From Candidatus Bathyarchaeia archaeon (GTDB taxonomy: Archaea > Thermoproteota > Bathyarchaeia > 40CM-2-53-6), in contig JBEKVV010000004.1 of NCBI GenBank assembly GCA_049513715.1, positions 103,633 through 167,632 of the forward strand: a stretch of DNA of 64,000 nt. The letters are read 5' to 3'. A program made the position numbers and the translations under genes. The notes below the pieces were generated by a model. That model was not told the DNA's origin. It ran no database searches and saw only the letters and a program-made list of their open reading frames with translations. Shown here one piece after another: positions 36,495 to 41,024 of this stretch (the stretch's first letter is position 1; every line of letters begins with the position of its first letter).

Positions 36495-36911
36495 CTACGC
36501 CATGTTCTCGCGAAGGATCCCTGCGACTTCGGTCGGAAGCAGAGTAGCCTTCCAGTTCAGGTCGACTGCGATGCATTTCAAGTAGCCTTCAGCGGCCAAT
36601 TCGTTCGTTTCCTTTTTGTTTAGTTGAAACTCGTATGTGACGGTCTTATCGGTGATTTCCTTGACCTTCATTACGACTTCAATGAGGTCATCGTACTTGC
36701 AGGCTACCATGTATACACAGTGTGCTTCAACCCTTGGTAGCATTATTCCGTATTTCTCGCGAATTTTGGCGTGAGTTGCACCCAGTGAGCGGTAGAACTC
36801 TTGCTCGCAGGCCTCGAAGTACCTGAAGAAGTTGGTATAGTGCATCACTCCCGCTACATCTGTGTCAACCCAACGAACACGAAACGCGTATTTGAAACTC
36901 ATCGCGGTCAA
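36495..36911 (-). CDS. Acyl-CoA thioesterase (4HBT/YbgC hotdog fold)
   Basis: RVRWVDTDVAGVMHYTNFFRYFE motif. Confidence 0.8.
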   Translation of the reverse strand: MTAMSFKYAFRVRWVDTDVAGVMHYTNFFRYFEACEQEFYRSLGATHAKIREKYGIMLPRVEAHCVYMVACKYDDLIEVVMKVKEITDKTVTYEFQLNKKETNELAAEGYLKCIAVDLNWKATLLPTEVAGILRENMA

Positions 36912-36992: not shown

Positions 36993-37003
36993 AAAGCTTA
37001 TAG
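36993..37003 (+). promoter_or_regulatory. TATA-like box upstream of tRNA-Tyr
   Basis: aaagcttatag lies about 30 nt upstream of tRNA position 1 (37031). Confidence 0.3.
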
Positions 37004-37030
37004 GGCACGCGCCAGAGGCTTTGGTTTTGT

Positions 37031-37205
37031 CCCGCGGTAGCTCAGCCTGGTAGAGCTTCCGAGTCGCTCTAACTAGGAGTGACGGAGACGCTGTAGGTGT
37101 GCGCCCAAGGCGCGGCCATGTCAGCCTACTAGGCTAACAACCGAAACCGGACTGTCGCTGGTTCAAAGCAGGTGTTACCCTGTGAAAATCCGGCCCGCGG
37201 GACCA
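37031..37205 (+). tRNA. tRNA-Tyr(GUA) with three BHB introns (30/31, 37/38, 59/60)
   Basis: C1-G72 acceptor CCCGCGG/CCGCGGG-A-CCA. D-arm GCUC-AGCCUGGUA-GAGC. Exon 1 ends UCCG (37058-37061). Exon 2 is G-CUGUAG (37090-37096). A38-CCGGA-CUGUC follows. T-arm GCUGG-UUCAAA[37168-37188]U-CCGGC. As I recall it, the 3' half closely resembles the M. jannaschii tRNA-Tyr. Confidence 0.85.
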
Positions 37206-38036
37206 TTATTTTGATGGTCGTGGGATCGGGGCTCCATTCTCCTTCAAAAGCAGAAGCCGTTCTTGAAGAGTTGTATGTGGTGGACAGGTACCAAGGGCTT
37301 TCCATACTAGGAATTTCGTATTCTTCGACAGATTGGCGAATCCCACTCTCATCATCCAGTAATGTAGCTGCTTACGACCCTTAATCCATATCAAGTGAAG
37401 TGGTACTCGACGCATCTGCTTGCTTTGGTATACACTACTATAGAAACGAAAACCCAGGTTCTTGAGCAAGCGAGTGGTGCCACTTGCGAGCGAGGGACTG
37501 CATGTTGAGAAGTTCAAAATGGGATCAGAGTATTCGGATCTTGCGTTCTTGCCAAATGAGAGTGAGCCGTCCGTGTCAAAGAGACCTCTCAAACAAGCTG
37601 AGTAGAACGATTTGTCATTGGAGTCCAGGAGAACGTCGGGTATACGGGCTCTGTACTTGGGCCCAACTGGCAATCCAAGAATCTTGGATTTGAAATAGAA
37701 TACGGCCATGGAGCCGTACATCAGGTTCAGTTCTGACTTTTCAGGGCGCTCGTAAGTGCTACCTCGAAGATTGTAGAGCCGGGAAACAAGCGTCGAAACA
37801 TGCGAAAGGAGGTAATCGCGGTCTTCTCTGTTATGCCCTGTATAGATCCATCGATACTCTGTTCCTCCACGTTTCGGCCTGCAGAACTTCAGTTGGCCGT
37901 CACCCAAATGAATCCCGATTTCCTCCGCAAGCTCTATCGACATTTCTTTGGGGATCGTAACCTGTCTTCGGTCATCATTCCAACTGCGTGGCAGTGTCGA
38001 AGGAATCGGAGGCCTCATCCTTGCATATCGCTCCAA
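37206..38036 (-). mobile_element. Free-standing LAGLIDADG homing endonuclease gene (double-motif)
   Basis: Motifs LAEEIGIHLGDGQL and CLRGLFDTDGSLSF. 276 aa with a TTG start at 38036 (or 270 aa from the ATG at 38018). The stop codon (37206-37208) directly abuts the tRNA-Tyr CCA on the opposite strand. Confidence 0.85.
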
Positions 38037-38130
38037 GAGTGTGAGTAATTGCGACTACTAATGCGAGAGAGCTAGGTGAAACGAATCTGGAATCGTACTA
38101 GTCCTACCGTGCAGTATTCAATGAAGGACA

Positions 38131-38278
38131 GCTGTAGTCCTGTACCTTGATGGTATGGGGAGTTCAGCTTACTAGGCGTACAACGTCTGAAACCGGAGTG
38201 TCGCTGGAGAACCGTTCAATGGTTCGGCGAATTCAAAATGGAGTGCATAACTCTATGAAACTCCGGCCCGCGGGACCA
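38131..38278 (+). pseudogene. Partial second copy of tRNA-Tyr (positions 31-76) with introns at 37/38, 53/54 and 59/60
   Basis: G-CUGUAG (38131-38137)...A-CCGGA-GUGUC-GCUGG[38208-38231]UUCAAA[38238-38261]U-CCGGC-CCGCGGG-A-CCA. No acceptor 5' strand or D-arm lies upstream. Confidence 0.7.
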
Positions 38279-38346
38279 TAACCGAGCTGTAAACGAAACC
38301 GTGTTCAATGACTCTTTCACCCTGAGAGCGGGTTCGTTTCCTGATT

Positions 38347-40918: not shown

Positions 40919-41024
40919 GCCCTGGTCGTTCAGTGGTCTAGGATGACGGCCTGTCACGTCGTCGACGCGGGTTCGAATCCCGCCCAAAGGAGCGGAAAGA
41001 ATCTTCTCCTGGCGAGGGGCGCCA
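40919..41024 (+). tRNA. tRNA-Asp(GUC) with a 30-nt intron in the 3' strand of the acceptor stem (68/69)
   Basis: GCCCUGG-UC-GUUC...GGAU-G-ACGGC-CUGUCAC-GUCGU-CGAC-GCGGG-UUCGAAU-CCCGC-CCA[40987-41016]GGGC-G-CCA. BHB: CGCC/GGCG helix, bulges CAA and AGG, AGGAG/CUCCU hairpin. Confidence 0.8.

Follow-up and report, generated by a model that had tools for sequence, protein, structure and literature searches.

The origin of the multiple introns at odd positions and of the split or fragmented tRNA genes of archaea is a long-standing open question, and the agents proposed so far are integrating viruses or plasmids and 'intron transposition'. Elements of the SSV1 and pNOB8 type possess a tyrosine-recombinase integrase and identical att repeats of about 40-60 bp. 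Such an element brings a part of the tRNA with it, the gene is restored and a partial duplicate is found at the far border (summarised in PMC3293823). In Caldiarchaeum subterraneum, the tRNA-Thr(GGU) gene is associated with a 1.8-kb insert, encoding a putative recombinase, between a 5' fragment and an intron-richer gene, for which a pNOB8-type integration was proposed; the mobile element was also proposed by these authors as a source of tRNA introns and fragments (Sugahara et al. 2012, PMC3293823). This case is the closest precedent for the locus reported here, which belongs to a 64-kb stretch of DNA from a Bathyarchaeia archaeon (habitat given as soil/peat), the whole of which is referred to as the window. 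We consider it probable that this locus is a tRNA-Tyr gene invaded by a cassette carrying a free-standing LAGLIDADG homing endonuclease gene (HEG), in which the working gene is composed of exon 1 and of the HEG-adjacent 3' part, named A, the distal 3' part being named B.

Free-standing HEGs of other types are found in phages. The T4 proteins SegF, SegB and MobE belong to the GIY-YIG or HNH types and their genes spread in co-infection, and in collaborative homing the free-standing F-CphI gene is located beside the group I intron of cyanophage psbA, an intron that could shield the resident copy, HEG and intron being spread jointly. Phage free-standing HEGs spread with flanking markers by break repair ('intronless homing'), and SegB works in a tRNA gene cluster, where it promotes segmental amplification (PMC2790892, PMC13096335). 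In the 'fractured genes', a free-standing HEG lies between the halves of a split-intein gene, which is rescued by protein trans-splicing (Dassa et al. 2009, PMC2677866).

In the window, the exons located at positions 37031-37061, 37090-37096, 37146-37167 and 37189-37205 of the forward strand generate, when joined, a 77-nucleotide (nt) tRNA-Tyr(GTA) recognized by ARAGORN, with a 7-bp acceptor stem, a CCA end encoded in the DNA and a canonical cloverleaf once the three introns are taken out. Exon 1 covers tRNA positions 1-30 and its sequence occurs once in the window, exon 2 covers positions 31-37 and holds the GTA anticodon, exon 3 corresponds to positions 38-59 and exon 4 to positions 60-76 with the encoded CCA, followed by TTATTTT. 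The unspliced region gave no tRNA call with ARAGORN, with or without introns, nor with Rfam, and the gene is therefore detected by these tools only after manual splicing. A putative TATA-like promoter element, AAAGCTTATAGGG, is present on the same strand at 36993-37005, about 27-35 nt upstream of the tRNA, and its core CTTATAGG is kept 5' of the tRNA-Tyr gene in several of the related loci described below (L003, L128, L130, L133, L137 and L142). On the other side, the T-rich TTATTTTG directly after the CCA (37203-37215) reads, on the complementary strand, as the final codons and stop of the HEG; it is likely to be the tRNA terminator, made of bases common to the tRNA and HEG genes.

The three introns are inserted at positions 30/31 (28 nt, 37062-37089), 37/38 (49 nt, 37097-37145) and 59/60 (21 nt, 37168-37188). 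Those at 30/31 and 59/60 display the BHB (bulge-helix-bulge) motif of the hBHBh' form, consisting of a helix, a 3-nt bulge, a 4-bp helix, a 3-nt bulge and a helix, with the cut after the second bulge nucleotide (register set by eye). The 30/31 motif is built on a CUUC/GGAG helix with bulges CGA and ACG, and the 59/60 motif on a UUCA/UGAA helix with bulges AAG and AAU. Among nine distinct homologous 30/31 introns, 90.6% of the cells pair in this register vs 38-55% with the partner shifted, the central helix is paired in 9/9 and the intron hairpin shows two compensatory pairs. No fit to a strict BHB was achieved for the 37/38 intron, the removal of which restores the anticodon loop. The introns are predicted to be excised in vivo.

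The HEG is encoded on the opposite strand (37206-38018), antisense to the tRNA-Tyr gene and outside its exons, and its stop codon (37206-37208) adjoins A76 of the tRNA. The protein comprises 270 amino acids from the ATG at 38018, chosen as the likely start, the open reading frame (ORF) being open up to a TTG at 38036; a database protein (P0001) is identical over the 270 residues. The HEG is free-standing, residing in no self-splicing intron or intein, and no group I or II intron was detected by Rfam in the window or in 16 related loci. The 1.1-kb insert between the two tRNA parts contains no integrase or tyrosine recombinase, and the HEG is its sole ORF of substance. The ORF 37206-38036 matched PF14528 with 27.9 bits (cut-off 22.5) through the second domain only. 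Two LAGLIDADG motifs were found, LAEEIGIHLGDG and LRGLFDTDGS, each ending in an acidic residue; D41 is kept in at least 90% of the homologues, and no change occurs at D149/D151 in alignments of 13 and 46 sequences. The AlphaFold2 model (predicted local distance difference test, pLDDT, 94.9; predicted template modelling score, pTM, 0.92) consists of two alpha-beta-beta-alpha-beta-beta-alpha halves with the secondary structures arranged as expected, and its top Foldseek matches were the TliVMA intein endonuclease, I-DmoI (TM score 0.76 relative to the target) and PI-PfuI, with E-values of 1e-9 to 1e-12. The product is predicted, from its sequence and model, to be a monomeric two-motif LAGLIDADG homing endonuclease, with a cleavage activity that is itself a prediction.

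Beyond the HEG, a spacer including the HEG upstream region (38019-38119) leads to an 11-nt segment, AATGAAGGACA (38120-38130, forward strand), a possible but uncertain leftover of the 3' end of the 30/31 intron, which abuts a second copy of tRNA-Tyr positions 31-76 (38131-38278, forward strand). The exons of this copy 2 are found at 38131-37, 38192-207, 38232-37 and 38262-78, and its introns at 38138-91 (37/38), 38208-31 (53/54) and 38238-61 (59/60), the 24-nt 53/54 intron being of BHB type (register by eye). The two copies are 74% identical overall, with conserved exons and strongly diverged introns; a single exon nucleotide is different (position 44, C in copy 1 and G in copy 2), and exon 1 joined to the copy-2 exons likewise gives a valid tRNA-Tyr. 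A sequence-only reading of this region had described a complete three-intron tRNA-Tyr(GUA) at 37031-37205, textbook BHBs at 30/31 and 59/60, an antisense double-motif LAGLIDADG ORF whose stop touches A76, and a second copy of positions 31-76 with conserved exons and different intron interiors. ARAGORN, suggested there as a check, calls nothing in the unspliced region and a tRNA-Tyr(GTA) in the spliced product; the BHB geometry, the position of the stop and the exon conservation were correctly seen, and the ORF is now assigned to a Pfam family. Copy 2 had been properly located, but its 53/54 intron had been overlooked.

Between positions 36900 and 38400, five independent metagenome contigs were 99.9-100% identical to the window. 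A misassembly was rejected on the basis of these contigs and of the conservation of the architecture in diverged loci, since it recurs in three HEG lineages about 60% identical to one another. The window clade comprises the window, L123-127 and L089, a contig from a Candidatus Bathyarchaeota metagenome-assembled genome (MAG) encoding a HEG 94% identical to that of the window. The soil clade (L001/2 and L006-L011, from soil metagenomes) encodes HEGs (P0002-P0004) about 60% identical to that of the window, and is organized alike: a complete tRNA-Tyr gene with several introns comes first, then an antisense HEG whose end lies 15 nt from the CCA, a spacer and finally a second 3' part. The third lineage, L003 (57% identical), is degenerate, as the last ~55 residues of the HEG are gone and motif residues are altered. 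Its HEG adjoins a full B-type tRNA-Tyr; across the HEG from that gene, next to the stop codon of the neighbouring helix-turn-helix (HTH) gene, re-alignment revealed the decayed remnant of a tRNA 3' end. L003 was considered as a counterexample, with a B-type gene and no second copy, and rejected as such because of this remnant, which places the junction near 59/60.

The A part possesses the 30/31 intron and lacks one at 53/54; its 37/38 intron starts with GTGTGCGCC and its 59/60 intron follows the pattern (G/A)CAGG..CCTGTGA. In the B part, the 37/38 intron starts with TCCTG, an intron is present at 53/54 and the one at 59/60 follows the pattern AT(G/A)GAG..CTCTATG. The order AA-HEG-BB is the same in two HEG lineages which are ~60% identical. 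The junction of copy 2 is located at position 31 in the window clade, near position 25 for the soil clade and near 59/60 for L003. The 11 nt that precede G31 in the window clade are similar to the terminal (3') portion of a 30/31 intron; 8/12 positions at the window junction agree with the copy-1 AGTGACGGAGAC, the soil clade having CTTCCG there instead. By eye, the HEG-proximal end of the spacer is weakly alignable with the soil clade and with L003. The A-type 37/38 intron is conserved to an unusual degree, with 84-96% identity from one lineage to another, even when the window clade is compared with the soil clade, whose HEGs are only ~60% identical. An invariant CAGCC, with a near-invariant (C/T)AGGC after it, is present in this intron, as is, in the window clade, a conserved CUAC able to pair with the anticodon and G37 (by eye); the intron may do more than get spliced out.

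Most likely, copy 2 is what the cassette displaced, the native 3' part of the former gene. With the full-length gene adjoining the HEG in L003 it shares 89% identity, and its B-type introns are also those of the HEG-free gene of L130. Copy 2 lacks positions 1-30, no TATA-like element was read in the sequence 5' of 38131 and no second 5' piece of tRNA-Tyr was found anywhere in the window. In the soil clade, the CTTCCG exon duplicate is contiguous with G31 and leaves no BHB 3' half; in the window, the bulge geometry at 38130/31 is unlike a 3-nt BHB (by eye). Across the soil clade, the copy-1 exons vary at 0/77 columns and the copy-2 exons carry 3-4 changes, including a stem mismatch (an additional G in the anticodon loop in L006, G42A in L010, C69T in L010/11), with about 20% of the intron columns being variable. 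Copy 2 can therefore be read as a relic, as it has no 5' part, no TATA-like element and, in the soil clade, no BHB half and, in some contigs, damaged exons. An own promoter and a BHB-forming leader on the 3' piece, which characterize split or trans-spliced tRNAs, are both missing at copy 2. The copy is probably not used for tRNA-Tyr, its silence being deduced from these features, and its use as a functional alternative 3' half was rejected as the favoured explanation owing to the lack of a BHB half and the damaged copies in the soil clade. The good conservation of its exons and the states they have in common with exon 1 fit a recently displaced functional part.

Comparison of the window with L089 revealed a mosaic. 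The flanking proteins are 63% (methyltransferase) and 58% (thioesterase) identical, whereas the nucleotide identity is 92-100% from about 37031, the first base of the tRNA, to about 38207. This tract holds exon 1, the three introns, the A part, the HEG, the spacer (about 94% identical) and copy 2 down to about position 53. To the left, identity falls to 42-80%; to the right, it collapses within copy 2, in the loops of the 53/54 and 59/60 introns, and no alignment is obtained past the CCA. The synonymous divergence (dS) of the HEG between both loci is 0.055. Altogether, this pattern indicates that the tract moved horizontally and recently between divergent archaea, with both of its ends in tRNA sequence. 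It is expected of a recent transfer in which homology would have been provided by exon 1 on the left and by the 3' part of the resident gene on the right. Because three introns are included in the transferred tract, tRNA introns travelled with the HEG. The distribution of the HEG is sporadic, the cassette is younger than its flanks and flanking markers were co-converted, as for a mobile HEG. The same comparison offers no contrast in the soil clade, since all of its loci are of one lineage with flanks 87-94% identical. The ratio of non-synonymous to synonymous substitutions (dN/dS) in the HEG was 0.47 between the window and L089 and 0.08-0.39 inside the soil clade (values of L009-L011 against the other soil loci were left out, these being out of frame). 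Such values indicate that the protein is kept up by purifying selection.

Syntenic loci were then retrieved through the neighbouring methyltransferase, or, for relatives of the soil clade, through a gene neighbouring the soil-clade locus. The gene order at the site is trypsin-PDZ, methyltransferase, HTH protein, tRNA-Tyr, thioesterase and major facilitator superfamily (MFS) transporter, and HEG-bearing, HEG-free and degenerate alleles all occur at this one site. A single HEG-free tRNA-Tyr gene lies between the thioesterase and the HTH/methyltransferase genes in L130, L133, L137 and L142/143, and HEG-free syntenic genes are also found in the soil-clade relatives L146 and L148, as the sequence-only reading had suggested looking for in related genomes. 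None of these HEG-free loci shows a HEG remnant or two tRNA-Tyr copies; a duplication without endonuclease gene, which that reading had named as adverse to it, is thus missing among them. L130 contains a single full B-type gene with an extra 22/23 intron and no 30/31 intron. In L133, L137 and L142/143, the single gene is of an 'AB' type, i.e. it combines the 30/31 intron, the A-type 37/38 intron, a 53/54 intron and the B-type 59/60 intron; L146 is also AB, and L148/149/151 are BA. Taking L130, L003, L133, L137, L142, L146 and L148 against window 37031-37205, the tRNA-Tyr family displays six intron positions (22/23, 30/31, 37/38, variable arm ~44/45, 53/54 and 59/60), and introns form two linked modules, a left one (30/31 with the 37/38 type) and a right one (53/54 with the 59/60 type), for which AA, BB, AB and BA are all found. 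The 30/31 intron and A-type 37/38 intron are not cassette-specific, because they are present in HEG-free alleles, and the idea that the 30/31 intron and A part are a junction scar found only with the cassette was rejected since HEG-free L133, L137, L142 and L146 carry both. Finally, L128 (L128:4478-4866), a relative of the window with flanks 94-96% identical in nucleotides, shows a 1.1-kb deletion extending from an AGCTT in exon 1 to an AGCTT in the copy-2 37/38 intron, with loss of the HEG, the A part and the anticodon. The remaining tRNA-Tyr cannot work; the contig may represent a rare variant or an artefact, or its genome may hold another tRNA-Tyr gene.

The invasion that we favour would proceed as follows. 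The HEG would cut a HEG-free tRNA-Tyr allele somewhere in the gene, and the break would be repaired off the HEG-bearing chromosome, with the left end pairing in exon 1 and the donor 3' tRNA part, the HEG and the spacer being copied in. In each HEG lineage, the right end would first have been joined illegitimately, which would produce the partial duplication and account for the different junctions (31, ~25 and ~59/60). Once duplicated, tRNA sequence would flank the cassette on both sides and could support an intron-like homing into divergent genomes, and the 3' part borne by the cassette would keep the tRNA-Tyr functional. Later recombination between the A and B 3' parts may delete the HEG, and the AB alleles are the exact product expected of a crossover between copy 1 and copy 2 in exon 38-53. 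We infer the break by the endonuclease, the place of the cut and the order of the events. Shuffling of the A and B modules also happens in ways that cannot be ordered, given the BA allele and the HEG-free A-type introns. The sequence-only reading had supposed that the HEG arrived with a replacement 3' part, through break repair or through site-specific integration; the HEG-free syntenic alleles and the L089 tract speak for the former route, and the lack of an integrase together with the syntenic host flanks speaks against the latter. Its proposal of a route for the spread of non-canonical introns holds only in the limited sense that three of them lie inside the transferred tract. That reading also raised the possibility of small introns interrupting the recognition site, an arrangement akin to collaborative homing, which can only be conjectured here: the copy-2 junction falls at 30/31 in the window clade, yet near 25 and near 59/60 in the other two lineages, and HEG-free alleles carry the 30/31 and A-type 37/38 introns too.

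Several observations weigh against the invasion of a tRNA-Tyr gene by a homing cassette. The copy-2 exons of the soil clade are about 2.5-fold less variable than the copy-2 introns and carry clade-specific states of exon 1 (pair 5-68, position 51), a conservation which fits a recent displacement or gene conversion but also selection on copy 2, and each of the disabling changes is a singleton seen in a single contig. L089 is a single MAG contig, and the mosaic pattern rests on this one pair; a transfer of the tract by ordinary homologous recombination is possible, the cleavage by the HEG being only inferred. The 30/31 and A-type 37/38 introns exist in HEG-free alleles and a BA allele was found (L148), such that the modules could be old polymorphisms shuffled independently of the HEG, and the AB alleles could represent an ancestral state and not the outcome of a deletion. 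The anticodon lost in L128 is hard to reconcile with a sole tRNA-Tyr gene, unless this contig is a rare variant or an artefact.

Four other explanations have to be considered. The A and B parts, which are homologous down to their 37/38 and 59/60 introns, could derive from an old tandem duplication inherited vertically, in which a HEG landed between the copies, the B copy lost its 5' part and the cassette is immobile. Such a history would be in keeping with the common AA-HEG-BB order of two lineages whose HEGs are ~60% identical and with the occurrence of the A and B modules in all combinations in HEG-free genes; it is nevertheless unlikely, since two copies are present in no HEG-free locus, the junctions of copy 2 are lineage-specific, the distribution among syntenic lineages is sporadic and the boundaries of the identity between the window and L089 cassettes (92-100%, vs 58-63% for the flanking proteins) are situated in the tRNA. 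Domestication of the protein for a host function at tRNA loci, such as regulation or a maturase-like action on the multi-intron pre-tRNA, would agree with the purifying selection, with the existence of LAGLIDADG maturases such as bI3, itself a Foldseek match, and with many distant relatives in which an extra N-terminal region (one being annotated at its source as a transcriptional regulator) and a location directly upstream of a same-strand tRNA are found. This role appears quite unlikely for a gene that is sporadically present or absent among close syntenic relatives, that moved recently as a cassette between divergent genomes and that is degenerate in L003; in addition, the catalytic acidic residues are retained and HEG-free relatives have the same introns.

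It could also be imagined that exon 1 and copy 2 form the working gene, with 37062-38130 spliced out as a giant intron, or that both 3' parts are used. Exon 1 and the copy-2 exons fold as a valid tRNA-Tyr, the copy-2 exons of the window clade are intact and share clade-specific states with exon 1, a GAAG 5' of the copy-2 G31 could pair with the CUUC of exon 1, and the HEG of some distant relatives is apparently inside a tRNA intron. Yet the geometry at 38130/31, as judged by eye, is not that of a 3-nt BHB, and the CTTCCG of the soil clade precludes a BHB 3' half. Some copies 2 of this clade have an anticodon-loop insertion or a stem mismatch where the copy-1 exons are invariant, the giant precursor would be antisense to the HEG mRNA, and a T-rich, terminator-like sequence follows the first CCA. 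We regard this as very unlikely. The reconstituted tRNA and the direct repeat of a tRNA part are the signature of integrations of SSV1/pNOB8 style, in the model presented in PMC3293823, and a virus or plasmid with a tRNA 3' copy in its attP could have decayed to the HEG alone. The 1.1-kb insert harbours no integrase or other element gene, the flanks are host genes syntenic with HEG-free relatives, the repeats differ throughout their introns, unlike identical att repeats, and all three HEG lineages share this minimal insert, so that an integration of this kind seems highly improbable.

The invasion by a HEG cassette, as we propose it, resembles several known systems in part. As in Caldiarchaeum, an insert is found in a tRNA gene, the reconstituted gene is richer in introns and accompanied by a leftover fragment, and alleles vary among relatives; unlike in Caldiarchaeum, only a LAGLIDADG HEG is present, the displaced part is the 3' one, the repeats are non-identical and a transfer between divergent genomes is visible. 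The restored tRNA and its partial duplicate are reminiscent of SSV1/pNOB8, though without an integrase or identical att repeats at this locus. The phage HEGs are similarly placed outside an intron or intein and beside a conserved target gene, but they leave no standing partial duplicate; here a cellular archaeal LAGLIDADG gene is involved and both homology arms are tRNA. The rRNA intron enzyme I-DmoI and the PI-PfuI and TliVMA inteins, which are the closest structural matches and have in common a monomeric two-domain fold, are encoded in sense, in rRNA or protein genes, within an intron or intein that is spliced, whereas the present gene is antisense, unspliced and at a tRNA locus. With F-CphI it shares the situation of a free-standing HEG beside an intron-bearing gene; a shielding role of the introns is hypothetical here, and the 30/31 intron also exists in HEG-free alleles. 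In the 'fractured genes', a HEG is likewise wedged inside a gene with its function rescued; here the rescue is provided by a duplicated gene part and the leftover piece is most likely unused. No compared system combines a cellular archaeal LAGLIDADG gene, an antisense location at the CCA end, a carried 3' part and tRNA homology arms. A search of the full-text literature, the coverage of which was incomplete and gives no proof, turned up no account of LAGLIDADG genes located at tRNA genes of archaea.

Other features of the neighbourhood can be mentioned. All relatives except L128 have, in the interval from the methyltransferase to the tRNA, a gene for a 373-395-amino-acid protein with weak HTH_AsnC/HTH_24 matches (L089:1572-2738, L003:1649-2830, L130:4573-5760), which is absent from the window (38279-38346); the last codons of the L130 gene overlap, in antisense, the 3' end of the tRNA. 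In the HEG-free L142 (L142:1-2402), a fragment of a terminase large subunit, a ribbon-helix-helix (RHH) protein and an rve-family integrase are found a few kb from the locus and appear to belong to an unrelated mobile element. In the window, an ordinary intron-less tRNA-Asp(GTC) is located at 40919-40991, 2.6 kb away, and is the sole tRNA that standard tools detect in the 64 kb.

The locus had been taken for a singular oddity in the sequence-only reading, a view contradicted by the association of the whole protein subfamily with tRNA genes. We analyzed 111 loci (L012-L122) encoding distant homologues (27-39% identical) in MAGs of DPANN and other archaea, among them Woesearchaeota, Nanoarchaeota, Aenigmatarchaeota and Iainarchaeota. 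ARAGORN predicted a tRNA at 600 nt or less from the HEG in 85/111 of them. In the strict intron-less mode, a tRNA started at -40 to +200 nt of the HEG end in 54/111 loci, on the same strand in 51/54, and the tRNA density in this interval was 2.14 per kb vs 0.045 per kb elsewhere in the same loci (~48-fold). The usual partners are tRNA-Arg(GCG), Arg(TCG), His, Thr and Leu. Rfam gave a tRNA match of gathering score abutting the HEG end in 12 of 16 distant loci scanned, and many distant HEG ORFs overlap the 5' end of the tRNA by a few codons. That these HEGs are carried by group I introns was rejected, none being found by Rfam in the 16 loci; the reported archaeal group I introns are all in rRNA genes (PMC6125680).

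A partial tRNA duplication upstream of the HEG is not general in these distant loci (3/68 vs 5/68 in a control region), and in ORF-aware windows a z of at least 5 was obtained in only 2/65. Clear duplications were found only in L119 (25-nt 5' duplicate) and L104, where a 17-nt remnant of the 3' end of an antisense tRNA-Ile lies beyond the HEG, both being similar to the present locus, and perhaps in L013. In two loci, L049:195-1077 (37/38) and L029:1272-2126 (30/31), ARAGORN proposed a tRNA 'intron' of about 800 nt enclosing a sense HEG ORF; the L029 insert is closed by a perfect 10-bp helix, GCGCAGAAGC/GCTTCTGCGC, beside a 3-nt bulge. Both are possible candidates for HEG-bearing BHB tRNA introns.

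The locus provides a concrete and testable agent for the disruption of archaeal tRNA genes, a HEG that spares its target gene by means of a spare 3' part. With empty, occupied, degenerate and deletion-like alleles at a single site, it constitutes a natural system for the homing cycle in uncultivated archaea, and the endonucleases would be new meganucleases specific for tRNA genes. The adjacency to tRNA genes throughout the family suggests a general phenomenon and not a curiosity. As a tentative extension, which we hold to be doubtful at present, a large archaeal LAGLIDADG_3 subfamily, with members in Bathyarchaeia, Woesearchaeota, Nanoarchaeota, Aenigmatarchaeota, Iainarchaeota and others, might be specialised on tRNA genes of a dozen or more isoacceptors, which these members would adjoin, overlap or, in some cases, occupy from within a BHB intron, and its break-repair footprints might be a major, unrecognised generator of disrupted archaeal tRNA genes. 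If this were true, these footprints would cover partial duplications, co-converted introns, recombinant alleles, multi-intron genes, orphan fragments and, ultimately, split genes.

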